50,810 nt of DNA from Asterionella formosa (GCA_002256025.1 NKIB01013818.1:1-50810); one strand, 5' to 3'. Positions 13,836-47,107 are shown, counted from the stretch's first letter. The notes: generated by a model from the sequence alone, not told the origin. Numbers and translations: made by a program.

Positions 13836-14148
13836 TCACTGACACCTTTGGAGGAGCAAAGGCGAAAGGATTAAATAAATGTTGCTACGCCGCCTGATGG
13901 TGTTATAACAAACATTTCATTCAGCAAGCTGTACATATATGTAAAGCAGATCAAAGTATTATTCTACCGGTACCAAGGAACAAAAAGAAGTTCCAAATCA
14001 TCACAATGATTCATCGACACCCAGAGCAGTGCGTCGCTGCCTTGCTTCCGCCCTGCATTTTTTCTTGCATTTTTGCTTGCCTGTACTTTACTGCTGTCTT
14101 TCTTTGTTTCCCTTGCGTGCTTACCATTACCCGGTCGTAGGGGTACCA

Positions 14149-14238
14149 GCAAGTTGCGAAAATTTTGCTTAATATTACAATTTAATATGGGATAAAGATA
14201 GCTAAACTTTTAGTGTAAGCAAAATTACCGCGACTTGC
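14149..14238. mobile_element. 90-bp MITE-like hairpin element, copy 1
   Basis: TIRs GCAAGTTGCGAAAATTTTGCT / AGCAAAATTACCGCGACTTGC. Colinear with the reverse complement of 19836-19925. Confidence 0.8.
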
Positions 14239-14328
14239 AAGGTAGCTGTAACCTGCACTGGTTTATACTACACACGACCAGTAAGTATCACCGCCTGTCC
14301 GTCAGTGAAATGTCGAATTACGATCTAT

Positions 14329-14646
14329 GGTACCTGGTACCTGGTACCAGGGTACCGGTAGTAATACATAAATACTGTATTTGATATGCACATACCCAGT
14401 GATAACACGAAATGGTGCCATGATACCAGCACTCAGATTACCTGGTATCCTTCTTGTCATTCAACCACCCACCCAGGCGCACGGGCACAGGATGATCGTC
14501 ATCTCTGCCTGCCATCCTCATGACAGAGAAGAGTCGTCATAGTATCGTCATACATATACTTGATGCGTAAATAATTTGTGGCTATTTCTTTTGCGTCCAA
14601 TGGCAGCAGTGCTTTGATCTCTCTCAGGTACCTGGTACCAGGTACT
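14329..14646. repeat. GGTACC(T/A) palindromic micro-repeat clusters in the TauE/RPA49 divergent promoter
   Basis: GGTACCTGGTACCTGGTACCAGGGTACCGGTAGT at 14329-14362; perfect 18-bp palindrome GTACCTGGTACCAGGTAC at 14628-14645. Confidence 0.85.
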
Positions 14647-15041
14647 CCCTCTGGGCGAATACAGTTTCGTCAAATGTTAAAATTATCGCTCCGTGGCCAT
14701 TCTGACTCCTAAGATTTTCTCCGGCTCAATTGCCCTAGTGGCTGTCCGTTTTACTTTAAGCCACAGATCCATGCATAACATAGGGGTATATGTAGTAAAT
14801 TTAATGTTGGCAGAAAAGGTAACCATCGCAAGCCACGAAATAAAGACAGGCCCGTCCATCACCATGAGGCAAAAATTTAATTGATCTCAATTTCATGGGT
14901 CGACCGTATTATTCTTATTACCTCCATTATCAAATTCATATTCTGTTTTGCGGTCTTGCCCTTGCATTTTTTCACCAGGAGGATCCACTCACATTATCGT
15001 TAGAAGGATATACACAACGATTTATTGAGATCTCGTTCATC

Positions 15042-16358
15042 ATGGTGGTGACAATTAAAGTAAAGGAACCCGATCCATCCGTCGATCCAATTGTCGTTTC
15101 CTTTCCTGGCGGCATCCCTGAGGGACTACAGGAAGGATCGGACGCAGATCCCCCAAAGTTCCTGTGGCGCAAGATTAGCGAAACATCCACGAGAGGCCGT
15201 TCGTTGGTAGGAAAGGACTCAACCTGCCTGTACCAAGGCAAGAGTGATGAATCTAACAAGCGCCTGACGAAACTTTGCGTTGGGGTCTATCACAAGAAAA
15301 CTGGCAAGCTTGTCGTTTATCCAGCTGCCGAGCAGGGAACTGTCTTTTGTCTCTCTCAATCTATCCCGTCTTACGTGGAATCCATCTCCGACATCAAACT
15401 AACGGCAGTTCAACGACGCAAGGCGCTGTTTGAAGACTTTGGATCGCAAAAGAAACGCAAGGTGATGAAATCGCAAGAAGCCAACATCGTGAATGTTCAT
15501 TCGGTGATTGGAGCTGGATCATTAATGATGACTGCGTTGAAACATGGAAGCATGTCTGAGTCGAATCGGACTGCCATGGAGGTCACAAAGAGTGGAGAAA
15601 AGGTGAGAGGGAATCATGCAGACATATCGTTGATCGTATTTTGCCCGTCAAACTAACAACACACCACCACCTCTGCCCAGTTTGACGCTATCGAATCCAG
15701 TTACGTTGAAGCCCGTAACACACTCTTGCCTCCATTTAACCAGAATGCCAAGGACCCCCACATGGTGTATCAAGCACAGGATATTTCCGGTGACGATGCC
15801 TGGGGCCGCCTGTCTCGAGTGGCAGATGCCTGCATGCATAAAGGCAAGGTCATTGACGCCGTGACGGAGCGTGGTGAATGGCACGAGATTGTCAAGACGT
15901 TATTGAATGGTATTCCATTGGACAGTCCGAATGCGAAGTATCAAATCAAAACGTGTATGCTGTTGAATGCTTTGTTGAGCTTTCATTTGAATCGACGAAA
16001 TTTTATGAGAGGCAGTGCCGAGCAGGTGGCCAAGGATTTGAGGATCTCACCAGAACTTTGTGATCGTTTCTTGGATCTATTTACCTCTCCTCTCGAAGCA
16101 GGAGGGTTTGGAACGTCCAAGCACGAAAAGGCCAAATGCTTAATGTTCATTTTAATTCTTTATGTCGTTGCTCAAGGACGGAGCATGAAAGTGGGTACAA
16201 TAAAGCCTATTGCAGAAACTTGTAAAGTGGAGGTGGGCCAAGCTGTTACTTCGCTGCGAGAGGCTGGATTCACTGTCCAGTCTGATGGAATGGGGGCTGC
16301 CCTTAAGGTTCCTCTTACATTTCCAGGCCCGAAGAAGCGTGGTGGACGAGGACCGTAG
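15042..16358 (+). CDS. RPA49: RNA polymerase I subunit A49/PAF53-like; exons 15042-15602 and 15681-16358
   Basis: Motifs VGVYHKKTGKL, LFEDFGSQKKRK, LLPPFNQNAKDPHMVY and C-terminal AALKVPLTFP. A 78-bp GT-AG intron (15603-15680) with CTAAC joins the two ORFs in frame. Confidence 0.8.
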
Positions 16359-16461
16359 GTTTTAAGCAATACGATTAAACTCATGAAGCCATTTGATCAC
16401 AAAATATTTTTTAATACTTTCTTCGTAACTAGTTGCAGACTGGAAAACTCCAAGTAGATGT

Positions 16462-19400
16462 TTACTCCTCGCCTTCTTCGATTAAACCTTCATCGGCGGT
16501 GTCTTCAGACGCGAGGCGTCCCCGAAGGGCCGCTTCTTCAAGTTTTTTCGCTTCCGCGGCCTCCCTACGAATTTTCTCTTCGACTTGTAGCTTTCTCTCC
16601 TCAGCGTCCTTCCGAATCTTGTCATGAGTAGCGATGATGGCATCAATATCATCTTGAAAAGCTTCTCGTCCGACTGGAAGGTTCTGAAGTGTCTCAACTT
16701 GAGCCTTCAGAAGCTGGGTCTGACGGACTAGTTGAAGGTGCTTCGCATAGGCAAAGTCCAACTGAGACTCCAAGTCAACCATTCTAGAAATTGCGACAGT
16801 GAATGCGGAAGGTTCAGCTGGTTCCGGTGGAGGCGAAGGTGGTATAACATCTGGTCCCGGAAGTACTTCTGGTAAGGGAGGAACAGGAACAGGAAGAGGG
16901 GGAGGAACGGGTTCTGGCTCTGGTTGATGTTCGTGTGGCTGGTCGTTTTCTCGGAATGGATTTGGACCGTCCATGGCAAGTGAAGCATATGATGCATGTC
17001 TTTCCTCGCGTTCAAGGGGCATGTCATTGAATCGTTTGCTGTTCCAAGAGCCTAGTCCGCCCTCGGGAGGCCCTTGACGATGATGTGCCGACATTCTTCC
17101 TCCTCGGTCAAATCGACCTCGGCCACCACCAAACCCTCTTCCAACAAAACGACCTCCCGCCCTTCCTCCAGCTCCGAAACCATATTTTTGGAAGATTGGG
17201 TGGGGTAAATCACGGTCTAACGGGCCATCATTAAAGGGAGGAACAGGCAAAAATTCGAAAGCAGGTTTACCTAAAACAGAATTTTGTATAGCAGGAACAG
17301 GGGAGCTTCGAAGACGAATTGGGTCATGTGCAGACAAACTCGTCGAGCGGGCAGGTGCATGAGGAGGACTGGGGCTTGAATTCTGGCGGCCTCTTGGATC
17401 AACTCTATCACGAGGGTCTTGCCGAAATCTTGGATCCTGCCGTTCTCGCAGATTCGAATAGTCTGACTGATGCGACCATTCGATTTGCTGCTGTTGTACT
17501 TGCGGTTCCGGTAGATTTTGATTCGACTGAAAAATTCCTTCTTGCTGTGGTAGAGGTAGTGGATTTTCCCGTCGATCATATTCCGGCTCGACATGATCCT
17601 CCCGGGAACGCTTCTCGTCGTGGTAATCTAAAGGTTTGCTGACCTCAAATGACCTCTTCCGACTAATCCAGCAGTCATCAGAAGTCTCATTGCGATTGGG
17701 GCACTCGTCACTGGAGAAGGTACCTCGATCATCGCGGCCTCTGTCGCCTCGAGGAGAGAGCAGCGAGTCGGGAACCGCTCGTCCGCGGCCGCCGTAAATT
17801 GCTCTTGGTGATTTTGGTGATGCCATGTGTTGATCAGTCTCGCCACCATCAAAAGATTCGTTGCGATCATAGGTGTTGACCCGGCTGACATTCCATCGAC
17901 CGCTGAATTCGGATCCACGTCCCGATTCGAATGCATGACCATCATCTCTCCCTCTGCCACGACCACCACCTCGAAAATTCGATCTTCCTCTCCCTCGGGC
18001 TGGATCAAAAGGGATCCTGCCTCGACCGTCTCGGAAAACTCCTCGTTCGCCGAACCTTCCTCTACCTCCACTTTCAAATGAAGCCGCATTGGCAACTTCA
18101 TTAAAACGTCCCCCAGAATCATCTCGATTGAATCGTCCTCGTCCGTGATCATCATCGAGACGTCCGCTGTATCGACCGCGACCTCGTCCTTGATAACCCC
18201 TGCCACGACCTCCAGAAGATGCTGAATGATCATCATCGAATCGATCACTGTTACTAGTGAATCGATCGCTTGGAACACGGGCACTGCTATCACTTCTGAA
18301 ACGATTATTATTATTTTCTTCTGTGCTGAATCGATCAGGCTGCCCTCGCAAGTTGATATAATTGTCACTGTTGAATCGATCGTTTGGTGCCCGATCATTA
18401 TCATAGCGATTCACACTATTTTGATCGTCGTTGTCCTTTCCTCGATTGTCCGATTGTTGGAATCGATTTCCTTGTGCTTGGAATCTACCATCAGGTTCAT
18501 TGTATCGATCACCATGGTCTTTTGTATCGACCTCATTATTAAATCGAAAATCACGAGGCTTGTTTTCGTTCAACTGGCGATGTGCTGTATTGGCAAGGTG
18601 GCGATCATTAGAGTCAGAAAATCTATCTTGAGGATGTATTGCATTGAATTCCTGGCGATTTTTATCCGAAAATCGATCGTATTGTTGTGATAAAGAAACC
18701 TCCATATGGTTCCCTTCCGAAATTCTATCTTGCTGATGCTGCGAAGAAAACTTTTGTGTGGGTGGATTGGTTTCCGAAAATGTATCGTGGTACTGCGGAG
18801 AGATTATATCCTGACGGTTGTATTCTGAAGATCTTTCCTGTTGTGATTTTGTCTGAAAAATATTTGTACATCCAGCGTCTTCGTTTCTATCCTTGCCATT
18901 GTGTTCGGCAACAGTCTCGGTAATCTCGCTTCGGTGGAAAGCACGTTCAATATTATTTGTTTCAGATCTGTCAAAAAAGGATTCTCGTTCTGATCCCCGT
19001 TCCGTGTCCGTCATCTGGTATCGATCAACATCATGAGATCTCCCACCTCTCGCTTCAGTACTATAGTACCCCCTTCCATCAAATGATCGTCCTCGGCCTC
19101 GGCCACTTCCCCGAGAGAATCGGCCACGGCCTCCCCCATCGTACGTTGATCGTCCTCCTCCATCGGAATTGTCGTAGCTTCCTCTCCCCCTTCCACCCTC
19201 CTCGCCACGGCCTCTTCCACGACCGTCGACTTCCTGAAAATTTGACCTTGGTCTGATGTCTACATTGTGCCCACCGTGGGGATTAAAAGCAGTAGTACCG
19301 GTAGCTGTACTGTCCTCTCCTTGATTGATGATAGTGGGTCTCGTCGTCATCGCCCCCCTCGGCGTTGACAAGGCAGAATCGACAGTTGGTTCGAACGGAT

Positions 19401-19587
19401 ATCGCCCTCTTCCTCCACGAGCCCTTCCTCCTCTGGGATCCATCCGACCTCGTCCTCTCCCGCCACCGCGAGATGGATCGAACCGGCCCCGGCCGCTTCG
19501 TCCACGTGATGGATCAAATGATCGGCCGCCGCGACCACTGTTATATCCTCGGCCGAATCTACCTCCATCATCACCATACTCGTCCAT
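16462..19587 (-). CDS. 1041-aa RGG/RG-rich low-complexity protein with a Pro-rich linker and C-terminal coiled coil; putative RNA-binding protein
   Basis: Long uninterrupted ATG-to-stop ORF with many GRGRG/RGG tracts, DRF repeats and a helical C-terminus. Confidence 0.75.
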   Translation of the reverse strand: MDEYGDDGGRFGRGYNSGRGGRSFDPSRGRSGRGRFDPSRGGGRGRGRMDPRGGRARGGRGRYPFEPTVDSALSTPRGAMTTRPTIINQGEDSTATGTTAFNPHGGHNVDIRPRSNFQEVDGRGRGRGEEGGRGRGSYDNSDGGGRSTYDGGGRGRFSRGSGRGRGRSFDGRGYYSTEARGGRSHDVDRYQMTDTERGSERESFFDRSETNNIERAFHRSEITETVAEHNGKDRNEDAGCTNIFQTKSQQERSSEYNRQDIISPQYHDTFSETNPPTQKFSSQHQQDRISEGNHMEVSLSQQYDRFSDKNRQEFNAIHPQDRFSDSNDRHLANTAHRQLNENKPRDFRFNNEVDTKDHGDRYNEPDGRFQAQGNRFQQSDNRGKDNDDQNSVNRYDNDRAPNDRFNSDNYINLRGQPDRFSTEENNNNRFRSDSSARVPSDRFTSNSDRFDDDHSASSGGRGRGYQGRGRGRYSGRLDDDHGRGRFNRDDSGGRFNEVANAASFESGGRGRFGERGVFRDGRGRIPFDPARGRGRSNFRGGGRGRGRDDGHAFESGRGSEFSGRWNVSRVNTYDRNESFDGGETDQHMASPKSPRAIYGGRGRAVPDSLLSPRGDRGRDDRGTFSSDECPNRNETSDDCWISRKRSFEVSKPLDYHDEKRSREDHVEPEYDRRENPLPLPQQEGIFQSNQNLPEPQVQQQQIEWSHQSDYSNLRERQDPRFRQDPRDRVDPRGRQNSSPSPPHAPARSTSLSAHDPIRLRSSPVPAIQNSVLGKPAFEFLPVPPFNDGPLDRDLPHPIFQKYGFGAGGRAGGRFVGRGFGGGRGRFDRGGRMSAHHRQGPPEGGLGSWNSKRFNDMPLEREERHASYASLAMDGPNPFRENDQPHEHQPEPEPVPPPLPVPVPPLPEVLPGPDVIPPSPPPEPAEPSAFTVAISRMVDLESQLDFAYAKHLQLVRQTQLLKAQVETLQNLPVGREAFQDDIDAIIATHDKIRKDAEERKLQVEEKIRREAAEAKKLEEAALRGRLASEDTADEGLIEEGEE

Positions 19588-19729
19588 GATGGAGGTGCAT
19601 GTATTTATTTATCAATCTGCAGAAACTTGATTTATTGTTATCAAACTCTATTGTATGTTGTGATTGTCTGGAATGGTTGCATTGTTGCCGGGTCTATCAT
19701 ATTTTATTAATTTTGTTACCTGCTATCTT

Positions 19730-19995
19730 GTACCAGTGGTACCTGTACCTACCGTAGTTGGTAAATTCCTGTATTACATAGGGTCTCATGTGATACCGGT
19801 ACCTGGAGCACCCTGTTGCCTGGTAGGAGTAACATGCAAGTTGCGGTAATTTTGCTGAAACTAAAGAGTTAGCTAACTTTATCCGAGATTAAAATGTAAG
19901 TTCAAGCAAAATGACCGCAACTTGCACAGGTAGTCACCCTTTTTACGATGTATGTAGCTGGTACGGAGTACCGGTACCTGGTTACCATGGTACTC
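19730..19995. repeat. GTAC-rich micro-repeat clusters flanking MITE copy 2
   Basis: GTACCAGTGGTACCTGTACCTACC, TACCGGTACCTGG, GGTACGGAGTACCGGTACCTGGTTACCATGGTAC. Confidence 0.75.
19836..19925. mobile_element. 90-bp MITE-like hairpin element, copy 2 (inverted relative to copy 1)
   Basis: 21-bp TIRs with one mismatch (19836-19856 / 19905-19925) and an internal 12-bp palindrome AGTTAGCTAACT at 19867-19878. Confidence 0.85.
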
Positions 19996-21463
19996 TAGAG
20001 TGATTTGGGTTAGGGTTATCGGCATGCTATCAATTTGCATGGTGCAGTAGAAAATATTTCAATAATAAATAAACTGTCAATCAGTATACCGGGTAGACGA
20101 TACCGGAATATGTTAAAAAGCTTCGTACTCTCCTACGGGCTGGGTTTGTTTTCGTAGATTCGAACGTGCTAGTAGTACTCCCTAGTACCACTTGCTTTTC
20201 TCTGCTCTCCTACCGGTACCCTTACTGCTAGATAAACTAATTGACCTTCATGTCAATTCACACAATGTTTCCTGAATTGAAAATCTAAAAATCTAAGCTA
20301 AACTAAAGTTTCTTTTCCATGCATCTTTGCTTCCCACAAAGTCGTTCTAAGACTCTCTTCGAATTTCCACTTAACATTTCCATAGAAATCTTCAATCTTT
20401 GAACATTAGATGGCTGATTGGCATGGCAATGCAAGATTCGACTCGTTGGATTAGAATCGAGTCCACAATCCTCGTGACTTGCTCTAATATTCTTGACATA
20501 TATACTATATAGATCTGGTATTTCATTGAAACAAACAATTCCTGGTGAAGACGAAATATTTGATCTAATGTTAAAATGATAATCTGTTGTATAGACTCTC
20601 CTTTTTCAAGGCAAGTATTCATTGTGCCACCTGCCAACAAGACCTATGCTTTGCTAGTTTTGTTAGCATATGTGAGTCCCCAACCACCTTTCACAAAAGG
20701 TGATTGTCTTAGCCACAGCATTAAATCAGCCAATGAAAAATGATTCTATGTTAACAGAGAGGGAATCAATGATTGTGCCATCCCACATATGGGAAAATAG
20801 CACTAGCTAGGACAACTAGAAGCAAGTGAGGAGGCAATACAATTGGCAAGGACTTTCTTAGACAACTTAGATGGAGATGGAGTGAAAAAATATTGGCTAG
20901 GGGTTGGTCAGAGTGTCAGTTGGAATTTAGGTTTGAGAGTCAGGGATTTTCGTTTCTATTGCCATATGACTGCATTAGATTCGAAATGTTCCCCTGTCCT
21001 TCTTTTGATAGGTACATTTTCTAATTATATACTGCACAATCCATTTCCATAGAGCTATTTTATGCTTCAAAATTTTTTCCATCTGAGATGAGACCACATT
21101 TATCGCAAAAAACAGGCCCCAAAACTTGCTTGCCTTCTGACTGTTCTCAGTGATTTGCTCGTCACTATAGCTATACCCAGGACCAAGAGAGGCCCAACTC
21201 TGTTTCTCTGCCTTCCCCTGCTTAACCCCTGATCACATCCTGACATCGTCTCCTCCCAATTTTGCAAATTCGTGACGATGTGCCATGTAGGAATGGAATG
21301 TAAGTACAGGTACATCAACAATATATATATTATTATTCTAGCAGCATGGCAGCACAAATCACAGATAGGAGATAACATTTATATTATGTATTGGACTACC
21401 GTTATTCATATCCCGTACATAAATAATAAGTAATCGAAAACGCACTTTGACTCTTGCTCCACC

Positions 21464-22429
21464 ATGACAGCAGCAACAACAACGACTCCCACCAAAGAGG
21501 CTTTGGTCCTTCAGGATTTGAAGCGATACCTCACCAAGGGCACACCTCTCGATGACAAGTCTGCCGTCGCAATGCCCGTCGCCGCCATCAAGGCGTTGCT
21601 GGGAGTTGTCCAACGTTCCACAGCAGAAACCATGATGGGCCTGCAGTCGGAACTAGAAGATGCCAAACGACACATGCTCGAATACAATCGGCTGGAGGGA
21701 TCTCGCAGCAACATCTCCTTGGAAAGTGGCTGCCAGTTGTTTTTGAAGCACATTACGCGCACTTTCTTGGAATTGACGGACTTTGACCAGTGCAAGCAGC
21801 AAATTCTGACCAGGGGCGAGAGCTTCGCGGGACTGTCGCTGACTGCCAGAGATCGGATTGCGGCCGTCGGACATTCATTCATACGAGAGAATCAAACGAT
21901 TCTTATTCATGGCTGGAGCAGAGTCGTGGCGTCGCTGCTGCTCAAGGCGGCGGAAACGAAGCACTTTGACGTTGTCATTTTGGAAGGCCGCCCAGATGCA
22001 ACGGGCACCAAAGCAGCAGAATTCTATGCGCAAAAAGGCATTCCGACAACATTGATTTTAGACTCGGCCATGGGATACAAAATGCCAGCTGTTGACATTG
22101 TGTTGGTAGGAGCGGAAGGTGTTGTGGAAAATGGAGGGATTGTCAACAAGTTGGGAACCTATGCACTGGCCATTTGTGCACAACAACATAAAAAACCATT
22201 TTATGTCGCCGCAGAGTCATACAAGTTTGCGAGGCTTTATCCTCTCAGTCAAACTGATTTACCAGATGTGGGACAAAGTACTGACTTTGCATGCTTAGCT
22301 AAGGAGGTCACGGTGGATAATCCGCCGTCGGATTATACGCCAGCAAAATATATTACCTTGCTATTCACCGATTTGGGAGTCTTGACACCAAGTGCTGTTT
22401 CAGACGAGTTGATTCGCTTGTATCAATAG
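21464..22429 (+). CDS. EIF2B1: Translation initiation factor eIF-2B subunit alpha
   Basis: VAAIKAL, SGCQLF, ILIHGWSRVV, VGAEGVVENGGIVNKLGT, PFYVAAESYKFARLYPLSQ and DYTPAKYITLLFTDLGVLTPSAVSDELIRLY are characteristic of GCN3/eIF2B-alpha. Confidence 0.95.
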   Translation: MTAATTTTPTKEALVLQDLKRYLTKGTPLDDKSAVAMPVAAIKALLGVVQRSTAETMMGLQSELEDAKRHMLEYNRLEGSRSNISLESGCQLFLKHITRTFLELTDFDQCKQQILTRGESFAGLSLTARDRIAAVGHSFIRENQTILIHGWSRVVASLLLKAAETKHFDVVILEGRPDATGTKAAEFYAQKGIPTTLILDSAMGYKMPAVDIVLVGAEGVVENGGIVNKLGTYALAICAQQHKKPFYVAAESYKFARLYPLSQTDLPDVGQSTDFACLAKEVTVDNPPSDYTPAKYITLLFTDLGVLTPSAVSDELIRLYQ

Positions 22430-23042
22430 AAAGAGAGGATATGGACCGACTGTATCTTTCAGGGGAAACTAGACCAATTATTGGAATAGCGTGACCAGCC
22501 CAAGAAACACTGGTATGTTGGAACTTGAGAACGTAAGGGCGTTCAGCCGACGTTGGATCGAAGTTAATTGCTTTTGATATTGCGCTGGCAAAATGTTGGA
22601 TGAAAGAGTACCGCTTTTGCAACCTAGGGAGCTCAGTGCTTTTAACTTTTTGATTTCATGGTACCACATGAACCTAGCATAACCGACCCTATAACGCTAT
22701 TACTAGTTCTTGTTTGCTGTCACCCAGTCGGATACTTATGTGCCTGTCGGACGCTCACATTAGGAGAGTAGTTTGCTGTCCCCCCCTTCACTGGGTAAAC
22801 TACCGATACATCCCTGTCACGCTCACATTATTAGGAGATGAGTGCGGTTCGAATTTGGCGCACCTGTTAAACGCCAGATGGCCAACCGGCAGCGATTTAA
22901 CGGGATCAAACCGGCGATTAACACCTAATTAGTATGAAGCGTTAAGTTATGTTGGATCGCTACGATAGCTACATGCATACTTCGCTCTAGGAAAGATATA
23001 GATGGGTGTTATTACGTTCATTATTATAGGCTCGGCTCAACG

Positions 23043-23087
23043 CTACCTGGTACTGGTATCTGGTATCTGGTACCTGTACCAGGTACA
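23043..23087. repeat. CTGGTAY heptamer micro-array upstream of the MYB gene
   Basis: CTACCTGGTACTGGTATCTGGTATCTGGTACCTGTACCAGGTAC. Confidence 0.85.
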
Positions 23088-23881
23088 TACCACATCCAAA
23101 TGATGAAATGACTGGAGTCATAAGGGACGAGTGAAGTCTTGATGATTTGATGTCACGTTGGCTTTCGATACCACTCAATGGTAAGAAAGTCATATTTATA
23201 ATGGCGACATGTAATCTGAGTCGGGGTATGCGTAAATAAAGTATGTTCAATCTACAGTCATGAAGAGCACGGCCGTTACGTTTTGCGGTTACGAGTTTGC
23301 TCAAATCAACATATCGACGTAGTGATGTACCTGATCTTACGAATGTTCAGGAGTACATATATTCTTCAAAATTGGTATTGATTCTGTCTATGCGAATGAC
23401 AGACCCTTGTTACAAGAGGGATAAGTCACAGGTGCAGCCATGCTTCTGTACATCGTAACCGAACGGGTAGATCGGTTATTCTGTTCTATGATGCAGCCGC
23501 CCCACCCTCTATGTAATTGTCGAGGTAACAGGCTAATATGTAGGTGATACAATTTTAAGAAAACGTTTGGACTCATTAAACAAGTAAATCATCAAGAAAG
23601 CTGCGGTTATCTTCCTTCCATCTGAACGCCTGGATAATCATCAGGTAAGAAATGCCGATCATACTCAAGATACCTTTGGTCAATCATTGATTTGTTTGCC
23701 TCCTGCTGATCTCTTGTCGACAGCACTTGAACGACTCACAACGAACCTCACTAGGCTGCGAATACAGTTCGTTCTATCAGTGAGAGCCCTGCGTTCTGCC
23801 ATTACTGGAATCACTCGCTGAAGGGCTTGAACTTGTTGACGCCAATCGTTTTTCACCATTATCCAATTGGCTGTCATAGCG

Positions 23882-25532
23882 ATGACGTCGACTCGAAGGG
23901 CCAAACAAGTCCCATCCAAGAGGGAGGATGACGACACTGAACTGCATGGCCCCGATCACGAGGAGACTTCACAAGATGACGAGGACGACGAAATTGACGA
24001 CGAATCAGACGATTCTTCTGCCCGCAAGCGCAAAGTTGCTTCACCAGGCAGCGACAAGCAGCGTGTCAAAAAATCAAAAAGTGATTGGACCGACAAAGAA
24101 GACGATACTCTCCTAAAGGCTGTCCTATCCGACCGACAGAGTCGTCAACCTGTGGATGGCACTGACGATGATGCAGAGTTTGAAGATGATTGGGACGAAA
24201 TCGCCATGTCTCTTCCTGACAAGTCTCCTGTCCAATGTCTGCAGCGTTATTTGAAACTCAATAGTAAGTCGACAGCTTCAAAGGCTGCTGAGGATGAAAC
24301 GAGGAAGGCTGCTAGCGATTCGGAGAAATCCGGCAAGACGGATATTGACAGGTGGACATCGGCAGATGTTGATTTACTCAAGAAGCTCGTCGAGGCATAC
24401 CCAGACTGTAAGTTGTCTATCAGCGTGTTTGTAATTGTGAGTCAAGTTGCACTCAACACTATCTTGGCTGACTAAATCTTCTATTGTTATTTCTGCAGCT
24501 GCACCTAGATGGAATGATATTGCTGAAAATTTCGACGAACGAAGTGCTATTGATTGCCTAACCAAATGGCAATCTATAAGTATGCCACCGGTAATCAAGG
24601 GAAAAGGTTCTTGGACCGTGGAGGAGGACAACATTCTCCGGGACAAGAGACAGCTCTATGGGCGCAAGTGGGCTAAGATTGCTGCACATCTACCTGGTCG
24701 ACAGGGAAAACAGTGTCGAGAGCGATTCGTGAACCATCTGGATCCCGAACTCAAAAAAGGGGAGTGGACGGACGATGAAGAAGCTATTCTAATTGCATTA
24801 CATGAGACTCATGGTAATCGGTGGGCTAATATTTCTAAGAACCTACCTGGGAGATCTGATAACGACGTAAAGAACCATTGGTACTCGACTATCCAAAGGA
24901 AGTTTCAACAACACGGTAAAGACGTAAGTTTTCAAAATTGACGTTAAATATTGCGGTTACAAGAGTGCCGCCCAACTTCCACTTACACATCTGCGCGCGC
25001 ACTCACACATGATTCATCTCCTCACTACATAAAGAAATTAATTTCAGCCGCAGTCCAACAAGTCAACATGATGCAGAGCATGGGGAATATGCCTAGCCAA
25101 CAAGCGTCACCCCCGCCATCTGGATCTTGGCAGGCTGCCCCATACAGTCAGGCTGCTCCAGGTGGGCAGCCATCTCATCCACCACCTCCACATATCTACC
25201 ACCACCCTCCACCACCTGGTACATATGCCTATGGATATCCACCACCTCCGCCAGACGGGTACCCACCACACTATGGAGGTCCGCATATGCCACCACACTA
25301 TCAGTATCATCACCCATACTACTACCCTCACCCACCGCATGGTCGCTCCTCACATCCCCATCATTCTACACCGTCACGTGAAGGAGACAGTCCGTCCAAA
25401 AAAGGTGGAGATAGTACTTCCAAAGAGGACTACCATGGTGCATACGGGCACCCAAGGGGAGGTGATCATGGCGCGCCCGAGCGGGATTCGCGGCCTACCG
25501 ATGACGACGACGAGGAGGACGAAGAACAGTAA
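23882..25532 (+). CDS. MYB transcription factor with four Myb/SANT repeats and a P/H/Y-rich C-terminus; exons 23882-24407, 24499-24923, 25035-25532
   Basis: Repeats: WTDKEDDTLL...WDEIA...QCLQRY; WTSADVDLL...WNDIA...DCLTKW; KGSWTVEED...WAKIAAHLPGRQGKQCRERF; KGEWTDDEE...WANISKNLPGRSDNDVKNHW. GTAAGT donors at 24408 and 24924 with AG acceptors keep the frame. Confidence 0.9.
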
Positions 25533-26220
25533 TTAAATTGTGGATGGGGAATAAATTTACTAATACCCAAATCATAACATGGATTACGGGTGCGCTATCG
25601 GGGTCAATATTTGACACACAAACATGGAATTCTTGACGGGGACAACGGATTGAAGTCGGGAAGATTGGCAAGGAGTCTGCCATGGAGTGAAGGTGCTGGG
25701 TGACAACCGGGATAACCTACGGTAACAGGTACTGTGCAGCTGCCACCTTGTAGTGGTATCAGGTAGTCTGACTTTTTTTGCCATAACAACTTGACTCTAT
25801 TTTACATGTAGATACCGGGTATGCATGTACCGGTAGGGAGTAGCTCCATCAGTAGGTACAATATGTAGGGAGATGCAACTTGACAAAACGGAGAGTGCAG
25901 TAGCTCGTACTGGGAGTGCTAAGTCATGGCTGGCAAAGAAGCGTTTTGGGTGTCGCTCGTAGCAAGCATGCTTTGCTTAGGCACACCCATGGCTGTCACA
26001 CGTGTCGTGAGAGCAGCCTGTGAGCGACCTTTCACCAACATGAGACGATCGTATGCAGGAACTTACAGCGTATGACGTAAAATTCATTAATTCAGAGTTG
26101 CAATACCGGGTACCTGGTACCAGTACAGCAATACCTCGACATAATACCGGTAGTCTTACAAACAAATAATTAATTATATATGAATATACCGGTACACACA
26201 GTGTTACCAGGTAGACCCCC

Positions 26221-27245
26221 TATTCCCTTTTTCCAACTATACTACCGGTAGTTGCAACCAAACTTTAAGTCACTGCCTCTCATGAAGTGCAAGCTCCAAT
26301 AATTCTCTGGCTCACAGTCCTACCTATTTTAAAAATTATTCCGAACTGATGTTTTTAGTAGTCAAGAATTAGATCAACCTGACCTAGATTATTTGGCATT
26401 TTTTGTAGAATTGTGCCCTGGCTGATTGGAAGGTTTGCTCTGCCCCCCCCCCTTTTTTAACCCTCTATTAGTCAAAAGAGTTCATTTCTGTGAAGATAAA
26501 TAATATCAATGTCACCTTGTTCCTCCTTTTTGACAATGACATCAAGAAATGAAAAACTTGCCACCCCAAATCCACGTTTGTCCTTACATCTAACAGACAC
26601 CTCCAAGGAATTTTCGAGCAGCCCCTGCACCTCAGCATACCTCCCAAGGCATTTGGAGGAAAGGCAATCAACTGTCTCCCAATTTACCCCACAAAACAAC
26701 AAGGCATTCCATCTGCTCTTGTACCCTCTCCATTATTGCATAACAAAATGACTGCAATTGCATTCTCCTCTTATCAGTCAAGTCATCAACAATAACAATT
26801 TCCTGAAATTCAACGATGCTGCCTGACACAACATTGCTTCCAAAGACATGGTGAATTTCACATGTATGCCCATTGTTGTTGGCCTTTAGACACAAGACTT
26901 GCCAATTGATTTTCATTTTCATGCTGCAAAATTTTTGTTTGGTGAGGCACTTTGAACTTTGTTTATAGCATTTCTAGTTGATTGATCTTAATTATTGCAT
27001 ACCACTCCTTGTAGAGCAAAGCAAACATGCAGACTAGCATATTCATGTAAATTCAATAAGCCCTTATCGATCCACATGTATTGCTATTTAGCATTATACT
27101 TGCCAAAATATACTCATCTAACAAATGTACCTGCTGCCAGCATCATCTTGCCTAGAAAATGCATATTGATTCTACATAGGGCAGCTTTGAATCAAGCCAG
27201 GTTAGCCACTGAGCTTATTGGAACTAAAGTTGAACAGAAGGAGTA
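26221..27245. mobile_element. Non-autonomous Tc1/mariner (Stowaway-like) element, copy 2, about 1 kb
   Basis: Left end TA|TTCCCTTTTTCCAACTATA..GTTGC, right end AACTAAAGTTGAACAGAAGGAG|TA. TA flanks both ends. Subterminal homology to 11748-12525. Confidence 0.75.
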
Positions 27246-27282
27246 CATACTATGTTGTACATACCTATGTATCATGCTTATT

Positions 27283-28095
27283 ACCGGTACATGGTGTGAT
27301 ACTGTTGTATCATGGCGGAGTACCAGGTACGGGCGGAGTACCAGGTACGGTACCAGGGTACCTGGTACTGAACTGGTAGACTACTACCGGTATACTCCCA
27401 AAGTTTCTAACAACTGAGCAAAAACAACATACCGGTATATTCGCTTGTTATCATCCCACGTGATGCAGGACAGTGTTCCGTGATCAAGCAATGACAGATG
27501 AATAAAAATAAGAATCCGTACATACGCACAAGCGTTTTGGTCCCTGAGGTTGACTGATGAAAGAAAGATATCATGAGGCAGATGATGCATTGATTCCGAC
27601 AATGCATAGCTCGCTTGCCGGTATTATTTTGCTTACCGGTACATTATGATACGGTACCAGGTACCAGGAACTTGGTACTCGAGTGTACTACGTATTCCGG
27701 AGTAGTACCATAGAAGGTACAGGTATGTTGTCTATTGTTTGTTCATGTGGTGGTGTCTGTGGCTGGTGGTCTGTGGATGGCTGGTCGAAGATGTTCTTGT
27801 TTGAAATTGCATGCTGAAGATCACGGCCCACTTGATGAGGGGTACTAGGTACCAGGTACTGGTACCAGGTACCTGGTACTATAACTGTACCTGATAAAAA
27901 TTCTACTGTCCCCTCTACCAGCGTGGATGACGTAGCGATATTTCAGGTCGTTCCTTACCTTACCGTAGTACATACCGTATTTCTGGTTACCTGTACCTGG
28001 TACCTGGTACCTAGTACTCCGTACTACGTAGCACCCGGTACGAATAAATATTTTTTGCTTTGTTATTACAGAATGAACAGTACTACCTGGTAACG
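27283..28095. repeat. Densest GTAC/CCWGG micro-repeat field, upstream of the mS35 gene
   Basis: Exact 18-bp tandem GGCGGAGTACCAGGTACG x2 (27314-27349); GGTACTAGGTACCAGGTACTGGTACCAGGTACCTGGTACT (27841-27880); CCTGTACCTGGTACCTGGTACCTAGTAC (~27990-28017). Confidence 0.85.
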
Positions 28096-28376
28096 TATGA
28101 TACTGTGACACACCAAGGAGGGACCGACACGAGAATACCGTACAGGGAATTGATGCTCAACAGACAATCGTCCCGGGATTCTCCCCTGCAACATTTACGC
28201 GGCCGGCCTATACTGTATCCCATCAATCCTCCTCCCTCTGTCAGTTCAAAGCACCCTGGTTCGTTAACACTGTCAACACGACAGCTCCGTTCTCAGCTAA
28301 CTTATTGCTCATAAATCGACAAGCCTTTCTGATAGCAACTGCTCCCCAGTTAAAACCTCATCTCCAAATCTCGCCC

Positions 28377-28922: not shown

Positions 28923-30692
28923 TCGTCATTCATTTAGCCTGTTCCTTGGCAACAGTACATTTGTGTACATTCATTCAAAAAATTCCATTAGTGCGGATTT
29001 TTGCCTTAAACTTGAGAATTAATAACACTAACTATGTGGAAATTTAATCGATTGTAAGATGTTCATCATGGTGAAAAGTATAGTTCATGTCGTCTCTAAT
29101 AAGATATCAGATTCCACGTCGTAAAGCCTACCAGAACACAGGAACAAAACTATGTGAAAGCAGAGAAGTTATTTGTCCCTCTGTAAAACCGGTAGTCTAG
29201 GACGACGCATCAATAAAATGCGGTTTAGAAAATCAAATACTTGTGTTGAGTCTATTTTAGAAATGTGCCGAACAATTTAGGATCGTCCTTGTTCATGAAT
29301 CATAACTGTTGGCTGATCTACTGTGCAACAATTGTATCATTGTTAGTATTGATTCGCTACACAAGTTACACAATTTAGATGTATAGTCTACTGCAATAAT
29401 CCTCCTGTCGTTTATTTAATCTATATAGATACTATGTTGTCGTGATGGCGCTTGGGAAAAGGGAATTGAGCTGATCTGAAGCATTGTAAAGCCAAGTCAG
29501 ACGAACAAGTATTCTTCCCAAAGGATGAGAAGCTGAACTTGGATAATTTTGAAATTAATTCAATAGTCACCTCACCAAGCAAAAGAAATGCACTTTGAGG
29601 AGTTCCAACTCCATTGCATTCAAACAATCATCCAAAGCTAGCTTATTTCATGATTTTGAGTGATGATGAATAGTACATTTGGACATGCATTTGCGACCAT
29701 GTCCTTGCTCAGATTTACAGCATGGGGATACATGGAGAGGGCACTCAAGGTCTTTGGATATCTGAAGAAGAGGTATTGAATTGCTATGGACTCAAGGCAA
29801 CCGAATTTTGTGGGTTTAAGGAAGTTTTCAAAAGGACTATGTCATACTGGTACTTGGAGAAGACTACCAGATGCATCAGAAGTAGTTAACTTAAATGTAT
29901 CACAATTCTTCTCCTCCCAATTGTTAACAAAAGAAACTACCAGTAAACTAGTAGTACTATCACAGCAACTCTCCTGGCGCTCTGATGATGTCCATGCATC
30001 CAAATCAGATCCAAACAGACTGTTTCCATCCCATCATATCTACATAGCACTTCATAATGAACAACAAGCAGGTGAAAGAACCACAAGAATTGACAAGAAA
30101 CTCATGCATTGTCATTAAATTGATGAATGCTCAGACAAATTGTAGGACAGACACAATGAAACAAACGAAAATAATAATTTCCAGGTACTTGTCCCACCAG
30201 CTAAAAACACAAAAGGCAATTTTTTACAAGACTCCTCCACGAGGGAGTGACCACCCTCACCCTCTCGACTGCTCCTGCTCCTGCCCGCCCACACAGTTCT
30301 GGGCCAAGGAGCGCCATGAAGACAATCTTGTAGTTATATACTGTATATAAACTATATACCGGTACATATAGGTAACTAATACTAAGAATCCGGTAAAATT
30401 TTTTTTGATTCTAAATCTATATATTTACATGTCTATATGTAACATCTCTCTCCTTCAAATTTGGGTATCACCGCTTGTGGCATCGAGAATCAAGCATAGA
30501 GCATCATACAGAGTATACAGGCGGTACAACGGTACAGCATGTTGCATCCAACAAAAGGCAATAAATAAGGTCAACCGGTGCGTAGTCAATGGCTTTATAG
30601 CAACACCAGGCAGTCTTCTCCACTTCCCAACACACAAGCCGAAAAACGTCTTGAGCAATCAAAAAAGCATCATCTTTCCAAGCAGCAAAATA

Positions 30693-37075: not shown

Positions 37076-37335
37076 AAGTACCTGGTACTAGGTGCCAGGT
37101 ATCAGCAACCATACCAGGTACTACCTGGTACCAGGTCTGCTCTCGCTCAAAGCAACTCTCTGCCTGCTGGTATCAGCCAGAGGGGACCCGGAATCAGGTA
37201 CTGGTATCTGGTATCAGACATGCGTCTTTTTAGTGAAATTAGATCTTTGTCTACAGCATACATCATAACGGTAGTCTATCATGATAATGTACTTAGACTA
37301 GACTAGGTATCAGTACCCTGGTGCCCGATACCTGG
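37076..37335. repeat. GTAC micro-repeat clusters in a divergent intergenic region
   Basis: AAGTACCTGGTACTAGG, TACCAGGTACTACCTGGTACCAGG, CAGGTACTGGTATCTGGTATC. Confidence 0.8.
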
Positions 37336-40529: not shown

Positions 40530-41081
40530 GTTTGGTTGGAGATCAATTCCGTCAACTGCTACTATACTCTGTTAAGTACCGGTCCTAATACGGCAATTCT
40601 GACAAACAAATGTTAACACTATTATGTGTACATCACAAAAGTATCTGTACACTTGTATATTTACTGGTATGCTGTAAGTGCAGTACAACGAAACTCAAAA
40701 TCACACTGATTGGAAGAACAACCGGCCGTACATTGAGAGTTTTACCTCTTCACTCTTGCTGTATGGACATGTAAGATATGTACCGGTAGTTCGTGAATAG
40801 AATGGATGATACTATCATATCAATTACGTCCGATGCTGCTTGCTGTTCGAGTGCTATGATTGTACTCGCTCCTGAAAATCATTTTATATTTTGGTTGGCT
40901 TTGAGGGTGCACTGTCTGTACGACGCTCAATGAGCCCAACAGAATCCACCACTCCTAATCGACGCTTGAAGCTATCCCGGACATTAATTTGGATAACCGG
41001 GAGGGTTGACCTTTTCACTGTCCGTCGTGCGCAAAAATAACAATTGTTTTAATAATTTCTTGCAAAAGCAACCACAGCATT

Positions 41082-41153
41082 CCGGTACTGTGGTATTGCC
41101 TACTTGGTACCTGGTACCTACTCCTACCATGGTACCGTGGTACCAGGTACCAG
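41082..41153. repeat. GTAC micro-repeat cluster in the DBP3/VPS72 divergent promoter
   Basis: CCGGTACTG...TGGTACCTGGTACCTAC...CATGGTACCGTGGTACCAGGTACCAG. Confidence 0.85.
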
Positions 41154-41405
41154 TATCGTTATCATTCACATACCGGGTAGTAGTCATGGCACTATTTATT
41201 ACATTCGGTATTGTTCACTCACTCTGCCCCTAAATAAATATGAAATCACCTTTCATCGGAAAGCACTTGTAAATATTATCACATACATGTGATTTCAAAC
41301 GACCATATCATAGTCTACCAGAAGTCGGGTACCGGTAGTCCTGGTATACAATTTTCTCGACTCCGCTGCTGGCAGTTTAGTCCACCTCTTCTTCCCTCCA
41401 CAATC

Positions 41406-43889: not shown

Positions 43890-44062
43890 TGTCAGAAAAC
43901 GAGATGGCAAGGACTGTGTGTGGTCTTGACAGAGCGAATGAATCAGTAAAATCTAAAAAGACATATAAGTGAGTTCGAATTTTATTGAAAAAATTATTGT
44001 CATAAATGGAGACAGACGACGAGAAAAAGCTCCTCCAGTGATGGTCAGTCATGTGATCGTTT

Positions 44063-44637
44063 NNNNNNNNNNNNNNNNNNNNNNNNNNNNNNNNNNNNNN
44101 NNNNNNNNNNNNNNNNNNNNNNNNNNNNNNNNNNNNNNNNNNNNNNNNNNNNNNNNNNNNNNNNNNNNNNNNNNNNNNNNNNNNNNNNNNNNNNNNNNNN
44201 NNNNNNNNNNNNNNNNNNNNNNNNNNNNNNNNNNNNNNNNNNNNNNNNNNNNNNNNNNNNNNNNNNNNNNNNNNNNNNNNNNNNNNNNNNNNNNNNNNNN
44301 NNNNNNNNNNNNNNNNNNNNNNNNNNNNNNNNNNNNNNNNNNNNNNNNNNNNNNNNNNNNNNNNNNNNNNNNNNNNNNNNNNNNNNNNNNNNNNNNNNNN
44401 NNNNNNNNNNNNNNNNNNNNNNNNNNNNNNNNNNNNNNNNNNNNNNNNNNNNNNNNNNNNNNNNNNNNNNNNNNNNNNNNNNNNNNNNNNNNNNNNNNNN
44501 NNNNNNNNNNNNNNNNNNNNNNNNNNNNNNNNNNNNNNNNNNNNNNNNNNNNNNNNNNNNNNNNNNNNNNNNNNNNNNNNNNNNNNNNNNNNNNNNNNNN
44601 NNNNNNNNNNNNNNNNNNNNNNNNNNNNNNNNNNNNN
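44063..44637. other. Assembly gap (575 N)
   Basis: Run of Ns. Confidence 0.99.
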
Positions 44638-44738
44638 GCGTACCGGTACCGGTAGTACTTATTTTCTTACATAGGACGAGATACAGTTATCAGGTTGTTC
44701 CTCTAGTGTACCCGTACACCTGTACCAGGTACCAGGTA
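44638..44738. repeat. GTAC micro-repeat cluster abutting the gap
   Basis: GCGTACCGGTACCGGTAGTACT; GTGTACCCGTACACCTGTACCAGGTACCAGGTA. Confidence 0.8.
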
Positions 44739-44963
44739 TGATGTTGCGTTCTTGCTTGGAAAAATTATGACGAGAACGCACAGATCGAGTGAGATGACCG
44801 ATGATGTTCTTGAGTTCAAAAACAAACCTGCTTAATTTCTCTCCCCTCTGCCCTTGCTTATTTTGAACAAGCATCCATCTGCTGTCACTTACTTGCCGTC
44901 CTCGAAACTCAAACTAGAGAATCTCACCATCAACGACATCAAGTTCTCTTGGATACCGATACT

Positions 44964-45635
44964 ATGATTGAAAGAATTGCTACGTCAGCAGCCATGTTTA
45001 TCGCTGGTGTTCTGACAGCCAGCTCAATCCATAATGCAGCACAAACTGTCTTGATTGCGCAAGTCCATGCGGACAGGTACATGAGTGACACCAAGCAAAT
45101 GTTCCAAGACGACACGGCTACGACCACTGTTGTGAAGAAACTGCAAACCATGAAACGAAAGGAATTGCTGGAATTGTTCAAAAGCAGTGAGATACCTTGT
45201 CGTAGTGCTTTACCGCAACTAATACAAGGTGAATATGATGGATGCTTGTTGAATAATAATGGATTGACAAAAATAACTGAGATCATAACCAATGGATTAT
45301 TTGGTCGAGGTCGGCAGTGGAATGGGAAATCATTCGGAGAAAAAAGTACTGGTATCAATCGATTTCGTTCTAAAGAACTCGGTAGTACTACTGAAACAGA
45401 GCATATGTTTCGATACGATATTGGACCATCGACATTGCATCCAGACAAGGAATCCATACGATTAGATTATGGCAACTTCCAATCACCATGGTCGTTATGG
45501 AAGACTATGAAGGATGAAGTCCGAGTGGCAGCAGTTAATGATGACGGCAACCTGGTGCTCATTGGAATGGGATGTATGGCATGGAGTGGTGGGTTTTGGA
45601 ATGCCTCGCCCTTTTGCTTATATACTCGCAAGTAA
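44964..45635 (+). CDS. Hypothetical protein with an N-terminal hydrophobic segment
   Basis: ATG at 44964. Motifs GEYDG, WNGKSF, GINRF, IRLDY, MKDEVR, LIGMG. Confidence 0.7.
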   Translation: MIERIATSAAMFIAGVLTASSIHNAAQTVLIAQVHADRYMSDTKQMFQDDTATTTVVKKLQTMKRKELLELFKSSEIPCRSALPQLIQGEYDGCLLNNNGLTKITEIITNGLFGRGRQWNGKSFGEKSTGINRFRSKELGSTTETEHMFRYDIGPSTLHPDKESIRLDYGNFQSPWSLWKTMKDEVRVAAVNDDGNLVLIGMGCMAWSGGFWNASPFCLYTRK

Positions 45636-47107
45636 GGAACCAGTAAATATTGTCACTAAATATTCAATAGTATACATAAGCATATTATACAATTGCCAAG
45701 ACTAGCTGTATCGAGGACCAACAATTCCTTGGAAATGAGGTCAGCGGTGGATGACCTGATGACCTAATTAGCCTGGAACAAGCAGTCAACTCTATTATCA
45801 TACATCACTTAATGGTTGATTTCATAGAGTATCAGAAATAAACATGAGCTATTGACCCTGCCTTAGCACGAAACGCCTACTTTCCAGCTGTTTCTCATCC
45901 ACCTGTGCCACCACAAGTCATTTTTGATCCAACACCCATTCCCTGTGAACTGATTAATTTATGAGTTGCTGCTCCTTCAGGCCCAATTTAAATCTTTCTG
46001 AAATTTTTTTTCACAACAAAAAAGTGTATTTTGGCAATTGTTAATGAACATGCATTGACAATTTTTCACACACCTTTCCACCAACCCATTTTCTTTTTCA
46101 CTATTTATTCTTCTCCCTTTTTCATTGTTGTCATGTCTTACCTTTCATTTTCAATTTCATACTCTGGTTGCTTAAAAAATCATGTCGAATTTTTCATTTT
46201 GTTTGTTACAAGAATTCTTGCGTTGTCATTATTCATTCGCTCCATGCATTTTTGATGGCAGCGGCTGATGCATTTTGATTTCTAAACTTTCCCCATGAAA
46301 ATTCTGCTCCTGACATTGCTCAATGGCCCCTTTCCAAAGCTAGAATTGAACTGCTGAGAAATCCACTGTGCCCCTATATCGCCCCTAAATTATAAATTAC
46401 TTAGAGATAACAAAAATCAAGTAGACACCCATAGCTCTCATCAAAAAGCAAGATGATAGCCATGAAGCACACATGTTTGCTTATGGCTGCTTTGAAACAA
46501 GTCAATATAAATGGGAAGGTGCATTGTTTGCCAAATGTATCAATAATGATTTGGCTCATCATGGTCATGATGGTCAGATGCAGCTTCCCTCTGGTGCATG
46601 TGGGAGACAAAGTTGATCTGGAGATATTCACCACCATTGTTGGAGGGAATGAAGCAAGTGTAATGACATGATCGAATTTGCATCCAACCGAAAGCTAAAA
46701 AAATAACATACCAGGTCGACGATGTCTACCCTCGGCCTCATCATGATCAGGCCCACCTCCTGTGATGTTCTTGACCATCAAATTTTTTTATTCTACTCAA
46801 ATCACGGCAGATATTTGTCATGGCTGGCTGGTGCCGCCAGAAGTTATCGGAGGACGTATGTACTGGCGTACATAGGAAGAAATTTGACATCAAAAATCAA
46901 AACAATCCAAAATCAAAACAATCCCTTATCAAAATCCATTTTGTCCAGACTTCTTCATACAGACCCGAACCATAAGAAAAGTACCAGGTACTACCGGCAT
47001 GCTTACATTTTTAACATCATGTAGAAAAGCTATCAAATCATCTCAAAGCCATTGACGTTTTGCTTTGATTATTTTAGAACTTGCATCGGTCTTGTTCTGC
47101 AGGCACC

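Follow-up and report, generated by a model that had tools for sequence, protein, structure and literature searches.

Excision of Tc1/mariner-type transposons leaves short footprints at their target sites: the canonical Sleeping Beauty scar is TAC(A/T)GTA, and the classical scars of mariner elements are one-sided tokens of 2–3 nt. Over-represented short palindromes are also known, such as HIP1 of cyanobacteria, which is many-fold over-represented genome-wide, dispersed, and present within genes as well. Mariner-like elements have been reported from diatoms, although no such report turned up in the literature searched. In vivo, mariner footprints fit an exact cut at the 3′ end combined with a 5′ break 2–3 nt inside the element, and an oligonucleotide of the Mos1 5′ inverted terminal repeat begins TA/CCAGGTG..., where the slash marks the element boundary (both from the excerpted text of PMC2642840). 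Footprint size in the Tc1/mariner group is given as 2–4 bp in an excerpt of PMC7913693, and the excerpted part of PMC4423477 describes mariner elements with a TA duplication, a CTCCCTC terminal inverted repeat, and 3′ overhangs generated from the terminal inverted repeats. Here, we describe clusters of short, TA-delimited palindromic units in a 50,810-nucleotide stretch of DNA from the freshwater diatom Asterionella formosa (GCA_002256025.1 NKIB01013818.1:1-50810, hereafter the window), which we read, with moderate confidence, as accumulated excision scars of TA-targeting Tc1/mariner-type elements, mainly of a ~98-bp palindromic miniature inverted-repeat transposable element (MITE) with CCAG...CTGG ends. 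The architecture of diatom promoters is poorly known, and these words are the first that anyone mining upstream regions for motifs will meet.

The repeated unit and where it lies

Against an order-2 Markov model of the window itself, GGTACC (38 vs 9.5 expected), CCGGTA (31 vs 5.6), TACCGG (28 vs 5.4), and ACCGGT (24 vs 5.5) are among the most over-represented hexamers, the top rank falling to GGGGGG because of a homopolymer beside an assembly gap. The original prediction, made from the sequence alone, had named 13 places with motif clusters and proposed a k-mer enrichment check; all 13 places carry motifs, and the check, run on the window only, gives a strong excess over the Markov background. 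It had also treated GGTACC, CCWGG, and ACCGGT as the building blocks; GGTACC and ACCGGT are indeed enriched, but GGTACC is mostly a junction between units, since 33 of its 38 copies adjoin another TA-C..G-TA token. When the window is split at each TA and the sequence between consecutive TAs is tabulated, the true unit is TA-CC(W)GG-TA rather than GGTACC. By this table, TA-CCGG-TA (TACCGGTA) occurs 20 times with 0.5 expected, TA-CCTGG-TA 15 times (0.07 expected), TA-CCAGG-TA 13 times (0.23), and TA-CTGG-TA eight times (0.8), while TACCWGGTA as a whole is found 28 times with ~0.3 expected. Most of the 20 copies of TACCGGTA stand isolated; of the window's 24 ACCGGT and 86 CCGG, 20 of each fall within them, and TA stands on both sides of 28 of the 97 CCWGG. 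Five-nucleotide units are centred on W (A or T) in 28 cases and on S (G or C) in four, and distances from one GTAC to the next peak at 7 bp (24 cases), followed by 6 bp (eight cases).

Controls of the same composition behave differently: TA-GGCC-TA (TAGGCCTA), TA-GGWCC-TA (TAGGWCCTA), TA-CGCG-TA, AT-CCWGG-AT, and AA-CCWGG-TT are all absent from the window, and TT-CCWGG-AA occurs once. AGTACT, which had been listed among the cluster motifs, is not convincingly a member of the set, with 22 copies in the window against ~14 expected from base composition and five of the 22 in the zone of transposable elements (TEs).

Positionally, we counted 57 units of the form TACC-N0-2-GGTA in the window. Divergent spacers hold 23 of them in 4.1 kb (5.6 per kb) and tandem spacers 27 in 6.9 kb (3.9 per kb), compared with one in 2.1 kb of convergent spacers, one in the ~13 kb of the TE zone (1-12.9 kb), and five in 23.6 kb of stop-to-stop open reading frames (ORFs). 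Even these five are mostly not coding: the unit at 41330 precedes the first ATG of the YL1 ORF, those at 37079, 37112, and 37122 coincide with or precede the first three in-frame ATGs of orf256, and the unit at 19296 is the sole one of the 57 in true coding sequence. The distance from unit to start codon varies from 15 bp to >1 kb, with no fixed spacing. Thus, the earlier claim that clusters occupy 5′ flanks and divergent promoters and are scarce elsewhere stands for the dense divergent and tandem spacers and for the near-empty coding sequence and TE zone, but when clusters are counted, the window by itself gives no significant shortage in convergent spacers, because in this compact genome such spacers total only ~2 kb. 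The 5′ (promoter) bias is real as a trend, and is inseparable here from a rule of long non-coding spacers next to genes.

The same arrays recur in a second diatom represented by metagenome contigs, in which an 18-base array pattern was found at no fewer than 128 loci (at least 128). From the matches listed we kept 54 non-redundant loci (161,546 bp), dropping three viral loci, six duplicates of the same contig or locus, and loci with GC content outside 0.39-0.48 or with <4 TACCWGGTA; the array 18-mer matches in viral contigs, three in number, all fall inside phage coding sequence and were taken as chance. The ORFs of these loci are eukaryotic (leucine-rich repeat, sulfotransferase, DUF6818, and cytochrome b5 reductase proteins), the cytochrome b5 reductase matching diatom proteins from Ditylum, Staurosira, Odontella, Thalassiosira, Pseudo-nitzschia, and Amphora. 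Units number 573 outside ORFs of ≥150 aa and eight inside them (5.9 vs 0.12 per kb), with 7.6 per kb in divergent spacers (6 of 7 intervals occupied), 4.3 per kb in tandem spacers (12 of 28), and 2.1 per kb in convergent spacers (2 of 4). Where one neighbouring ORF of an interval is known, occupied intervals lie on its 5′ side 14 times and on its 3′ side six times.

A high-copy element and a proposed origin of the units

Structurally, the window offers a candidate source for these units, with two copies that lie in spacers carrying clusters. Copy 1 of a 97–99 bp element spans 14144..14244 with its TA duplications (element 14146-14242, 97 bp, with ends CCAGCAAGTTGCG... and ...CGACTTGCAAGG) and is an inverted repeat with 36-nt arms, 75% complementary, predicted to fold as a near-perfect hairpin (−21.1 kcal/mol, z −6.7). 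Copy 2 spans 19830..19932 with its TA duplications (element 19832-19930, 99 bp, 28-nt arms, 89%), matches copy 1 at 81%, and ends on the right in ...CAACTTGCACAGG/TA and on the left in a degenerate TA/ACATGCAAG; a third full copy lies in metagenome locus L018. Five of the six ends of these three copies begin CC(A/T) (CCAGCAAG and CCTTGCAAG twice each, CCTGTGCAAG once), and five of the six are flanked by TA. Since the CC lies inside the TA, and the base after the right-hand TA is not C, the CC is part of the MITE and not of a GGTACC target.

Public sequencing runs extend this beyond the three copies. Contigs of four runs from four studies (X1, X2, X6, and X7; runs carrying the window stretch are labelled as algae or freshwater metagenomes) were compared with window positions 13800-28200 (14.4 kb). 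Loose ends of other genomic copies read ...GGTACC before the arm in 25 contigs of X7 and TGGTA after the arm in 19 contigs of X6, giving consensus ends TA/CCWG...CWGG/TA. Summed contig depth over MITE and array bins is ~25-580x that of flanking genes in all four runs, and over the MITE bin ~150-370x, a sum of depth rather than a copy number; X1 alone places 14,645 contig pieces on the 14.4 kb. The element is high-copy in the genome, and its TA duplication, inverted repeats, small size, lack of an ORF, and many copies would together class it as a Tc1/mariner-type MITE. Its 20-mer has no match among viral contigs.

If excision made the units, they should be joins of the two MITE ends, and we tabulated every join of a CCAG prefix with a CTGG suffix between TAs, using the mirrored ends GGAC..GTCC as a control. 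The window counts are CCGG 20 (0.13 expected), CCTGG 15 (0.23), CCAGG 13 (0.23), CTGG 8 (0.87), CCAG 3 (0.57), CCAGGG 2 (0.07), and CCATGG 2 (0.13); these seven tokens, along with CCG and CGG, show an excess in the window and in the metagenome loci alike, and the mirrored tokens show none. Judged by their sequence, the tokens between TAs have the makeup of footprints, in which the target duplication is kept and terminal bases of the element stand between its copies.

Mechanistically, we posit that insertion would first duplicate the TA, and that excision would then cut precisely at the 3′ ends but a few bases within the element on the 5′ strands, so that one flank would retain TA plus C, CC, CCA, or CCAG and the other G, GG, TGG, or CTGG. 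End joining would yield TA-CCGG-TA, TA-CCWGG-TA, and rarer variants. Each scar would place two new TAs in the same permissive spacer, later cycles would add further 6- or 7-bp units there, and such additions would therefore build heptamer arrays with GGTACC at every unit junction, while point mutation would erode units into forms such as GGTATC and GGTGCC. Three steps are what we infer: the making of the units by excision, the role of this MITE rather than another family as their source, and open chromatin as the reason for their location. The original prediction had invoked a genome-wide process writing palindromic units into DNA; writing in non-coding, gene-proximal sequence fits, and the process is most likely ordinary MITE insertion and excision.

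Variation between populations bears on these steps, as read from the indels and substitutions among those listed for 13800-28200. At 20087..20095 the window carries a polymorphic candidate scar, TA-CCGGG-TA, where one contig each from X2, X6, and X7, runs of three other studies, is seven bases shorter and reads TA only. Repeat-unit slippage is not the cause, because TA alone is repeated there; the difference would be either an insertion of five bases plus TA or a TA-TA microhomology deletion. Three bases of the TACCGGTA beside a ~1 kb TE are missing at 26245 in X2 and X7. One 5.5-kb X2 contig (14185-19682) spans the arrays at 14329-14646 with 20 substitutions and one gap, and most arrays are therefore common to both populations. 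The X6 contig over 14342-16234 exceeds the window in length by seven bases, which may reflect another polymorphism of scar size. As a rough check of plausibility, 57 units of ~9 bp would be expected to take up ~2 of the ~60 substitutions that the divergence of the X2 contig predicts over 14.4 kb, the same order as the 1-2 unit-level changes seen.

Several observations weigh against an excision origin. One-sided tokens of 2-3 nt (CC, GG, CCA, TGG) are not enriched. No pair of alleles, one with the MITE and one with the scar, was seen among the indels listed, where the sole clean polymorphism has a scar in one allele and a bare TA in the other, as would also result from a TA-TA microhomology deletion, and that scar, CCGGG, belongs to the rare S-centred type (4 vs 28 W-centred) and not to the common CCWGG. 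In the second diatom, part of the CCWGG excess arises by design because loci were selected by an array pattern, and its 161 kb contain no intact TA-flanked element with CC ends, in contigs that tend to break at high-copy repeats. A mariner-type transposase was not found among the window ORFs. A cis-regulatory role, alone or atop a scar origin, is possible.

The alternative that survives best, though we consider it unlikely, is that the units are selected cis-regulatory sites, bound by a dimeric host factor on TACC/GGTA half-sites or a GTAC core and forming a lineage-specific promoter code whose motif the MITE shares or exploits. The density maximum in divergent spacers in both the window and the metagenome loci, coding sequence nearly free of units, recurrence of the motif in a second diatom, and arrays unchanged across 5.5 kb between two populations all agree with such selection. 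A single factor, though, would not predict the full family of prefix-plus-suffix tokens of the MITE ends, nor the parallel excess of unrelated TA-palindrome-TA words (TACTCGAGTA, TAGWCTA, TACWGTA). In the metagenome loci, TA-C-TA (869) and TA-G-TA (863) exceed ~390 expected, TA-GC-TA reaches 195 against 60, TA-GWC-TA 161 against 28, TA-CWG-TA 184 against 73, and TA-CTCGAG-TA 13 against 0.6; after removal of the C..G tokens, short palindromic tokens are 2.3-2.8-fold enriched and non-palindromic ones are not, which is what the joined ends of several inverted-repeat families would be expected to give. Also against a regulatory code, many decayed units adjoin intact ones, the distance to the start codon is not fixed, some units in tandem spacers stand a long way from the next gene, and a few lie in convergent spacers. 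No test gave support to the other option of the original prediction, a promoter code of protein-binding or methylation sites.

Equally to be weighed is growth by slippage or unequal exchange from a chance seed, the arrays being micro- or minisatellites that serve TA-targeting MITEs as a preferred landing site, so that the association would be an effect and not a cause; this, too, appears improbable. Head-to-tail heptamers of up to ~5 units and the 7-bp peak in GTAC spacing are what a satellite would show, and Tc1/mariner elements prefer palindromic TA-rich targets according to the excerpt of PMC7913693. Slippage or tandem duplication would, however, give identical neighbours, and among 150 adjacent unit pairs of the metagenome loci, 82 share the centre base and 68 do not (p = 0.29 vs 50:50; in the window, three same and two different), so that neighbouring units are alike no more than by chance and are independent. 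Moreover, arrays combine units of 6, 7, and 8 bp, and many units stand singly. In the MITE, the CC falls within the TA duplication, and what follows the right-hand TA is not CC. The 7-bp polymorphism at 20087 copies no neighbouring sequence, and slippage leaves unexplained why the seed should equal the MITE termini.

Far less probable still is that the clusters are terminal or subterminal repeats (transposase-binding arrays) of a larger, degenerate transposon family, with each pair of clusters bounding one element. Clusters are often paired 100-300 bp apart as inverted repeats, such as 27839-27871/27988-28020 (33 nt, 82%) and 14331/14644, but any two palindromic arrays are mutual inverted repeats by construction, and the sequences between paired clusters in the window have no family in common. 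Flanks of other genomic arrays diverge at once, their loose ends agreeing at 0.36-0.43 compared with 0.84 at the true repeat edge at 20402, and the arrays are therefore not part of a longer repeat. An assembly or library artefact, which the adjacency of one array to an N gap (44640) and the tendency of repeats to break short-read contigs might have suggested and which had been named as a refuting outcome, is refuted by arrays in contigs of four runs from four studies and in many unrelated metagenome assemblies.

The excision-scar reading also bears on the earlier view of the clusters as mosaics that neither a microsatellite nor a MITE explains. They are indeed not MITE copies, as the poor flank agreement indicates, and the independence of their units speaks against a microsatellite; the tokens nevertheless match a TA duplication plus terminal bases of the MITE.

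Clusters, genes, and other repeats in the window

The long ORFs of the window encode TauE, RNA polymerase I A49, eIF2B-alpha, a Myb protein, mS35, Mot1, a DEAD-box helicase, YL1/VPS72, and a MiaB-like enzyme, all of them ordinary eukaryotic housekeeping proteins. The eIF2B-alpha ORF matches proteins of the diatoms Seminavis, Cylindrotheca, Amphora, and Nitzschia at ~59-63% identity, and two more at 93% and 91%. The A49 gene is read as two same-frame ORFs split by a stop that lies inside a 79-nt GT...AG intron (15603-15681), the split thus being an ordinary intron in a gene that is not broken.

From left to right, the first cluster (13965..13974), in the divergent spacer between TauE and RPA49, consists of one TA-CCGG-TA unit that continues into GGTACC. 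Beyond MITE copy 1, the array at 14329..14360 reads TA-TGG-TA-CCTGG-TA-CCTGG-TA-CCAGGG-TA-CCGG-TA, and that at 14627..14666 (TA-CCTGG-TA-CCAGG-TA) adjoins a Stowaway-like end remnant, TA/CTCCCTCTG..., recognised by an inverted-repeat match. MITE copy 2 is preceded by two clusters (19730..19825, with tokens CCAGTGG, CCTG, CC, and CCG, the sequence TACCGGTACCTGG, and CCTGGTA) and followed by another (19960..19994) that includes a TA-CCATGG-TA unit of the 3+3 type; to the right of the polymorphic candidate scar, the cluster at 20174..20220 contains TA/CTCCCTAG/TA and TACCGGTACC.

Further along, an array with decayed units (GGTATC) occupies 23044..23086 in the eIF2B-alpha/Myb tandem spacer, and four clusters lie at 25813..26250, the last of whose units, TACCGGTA at 26243-26250, adjoins the left end of the ~1 kb TE. 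The six clusters upstream of mS35 (27282..28092) form the densest part of the window and, by inverted repeats, include a solo MITE-arm remnant at 27607-27637. A single TACCGGTA (30357..30364) stands 15 bp before the Mot1 ORF, and clusters with many decayed units (GGTATC, GGTGCC) fill 37077..37335 in the orf256/orf249 divergent region. Units and arrays extend over 40781..41346, through the DEAD-box/YL1 divergent spacer and the YL1 5′ leader, with tokens CTTGG, CCTGG, CC, CCATGG, CCGTGG, CCAGG, CCAG, and CCGGG. Two arrays (44640..44738) directly follow the assembly gap at 44063-44637 (575 N), the first (GTACCGGTACCGGTAGTACT) starting two bases after it, which suggests that the assembly was broken there by arrays or MITEs. 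The last unit, AGTACCAGGTACTACCGG (46980..46997), lies ~96 bp before the MiaB-like ORF.

Besides the MITE, other repeats share the window. A Stowaway-like family with the end CTCCCTCTG comprises the ~1 kb non-coding TE at 26251..27246 (right end ...GTTGAACAGAAGGAG/TA, left end truncated at TACCGGTA), the last element of the TE zone (12428-12526), and the remnant TA/CTCCCTCTGGGCG adjoining the array at 14644. A TA-anchored scan of the window for inverted repeats gave mostly uninformative array-on-array matches. The spacer upstream of eIF2B-alpha (~20250-21000) contains a very high-copy repeat, with summed depth in X1 up to ~580x that of neighbouring genes, and at position 20402 87 contigs continue into one common sequence (agreement 0.84) that is unlike the window.

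The TE zone (1-12700) is low in GC (0.37) and has no above-threshold Pfam hit; a weak match to a Plavaka transposase lies at 2313-2738 (E 5e-4, below the cut-off). Compared with Pfam, its 18 ORFs (1-12.7 kb) yielded no mariner transposase, the sub-threshold Plavaka match and one spurious match being all that was returned. At the edge of the zone (12639-12730), ~70 G (with few T or C) are followed by 10 N and 12 C, a pattern that suggests an artefact of scaffolding or of reads where the assembly has a gap.

Among the metagenome loci, the bases after TACC run into further units and not into a longer arm. A search for TA-flanked inverted repeats as source-element candidates in the second diatom gave array-on-array matches, the telomere-like repeats of locus L013, and two unrelated small inverted repeats in L036 and L048, all of which were rejected. 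Within L013, arrays at 190-1391 stand beside CCCTAAA-type telomere-like repeats, and this locus may derive from an organism other than that of the remaining array-rich loci. All-against-all BLAST of the loci for allele pairs yielded, besides contigs matching their own duplicates, a single true pair, L036/L046, whose difference is unrelated to arrays: the same locus in two samples, it differs at L036 3150-3330 by one 54-bp unit of a CCTCA-rich minisatellite.

Implications and comparison with known systems

If the excision-scar reading is true, much of the sequence of diatom promoter spacers would record where MITEs had once been, with several units per kb and a hundreds-fold excess over background, and would offer a readout, from sequence only, of where TA-targeting elements land and how often they depart. 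It would also account for a dominant k-mer signature that motif searches could otherwise mistake for a regulatory code, and for the breaks of short-read assemblies in these spacers. Whether scar arrays have been taken over for promoter function would then be a testable question. We regard it as a speculative and rather doubtful extension that the arrays are not inert, diatom promoters consisting partly of stacked scars whose present role would be that of a code for excluding nucleosomes or binding factors; a domesticated mariner-type transposase, or a factor recognising the GTAC core, may for instance be what binds them. Were that so, the coming and going of transposons would not just mark regulatory DNA across diatom lineages but shape it as well.

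Neither these words nor scar arrays in diatoms are described in the full-text literature searched, where KpnI and AgeI cloning sites swamp the short words, and the four array strings do not occur in it. Several known systems nonetheless resemble parts of what is seen here. Like HIP1, the unit is a short palindrome that is over-represented many-fold, and the original prediction had drawn this analogy; it fails on distribution, since the units are clustered and tandem, and coding sequence contains just 1 of 57 in the window and 8 of 581 in the second diatom. Like micro- and minisatellites, the arrays carry head-to-tail 7-bp units in non-coding DNA, but their neighbours vary independently, their unit lengths are mixed, and each unit is bounded by TA.

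Closer are MITEs of the Stowaway/MADE1 type, which share with the element described here a length of ~100 bp, a sequence that is nearly all inverted repeat, a TA duplication, high copy number, and a gene-proximal, non-coding location; the second family of the window recalls plant Stowaway in its CTCCCTC end (as in the excerpt of PMC4423477). The difference is that our finding concerns scars rather than MITE copies, and that no partner transposase stands among the window ORFs.

Closest of all are the footprints of Tc1/mariner elements (Mos1, Sleeping Beauty, ZB), in which, as here, the TA duplication is retained, a few terminal bases stand between the TAs, and the centre is palindromic or W. 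The start of Mos1, TA/CCAGG, resembles the unit (excerpt of PMC2642840), and the range of footprint sizes fits (excerpt of PMC7913693). Known footprints are described as single scars at single donor sites, whereas here they would be stacked, at ~4-6 units per kb of gene-proximal spacer, and would dominate the k-mer spectrum. With 4-5 bases of the element, the common scar also reaches or exceeds the upper limit of the 2-4 bp range in that excerpt. By this comparison, what would differ from known footprints is the stacking of scars into arrays at several units per kb of gene-proximal spacer.

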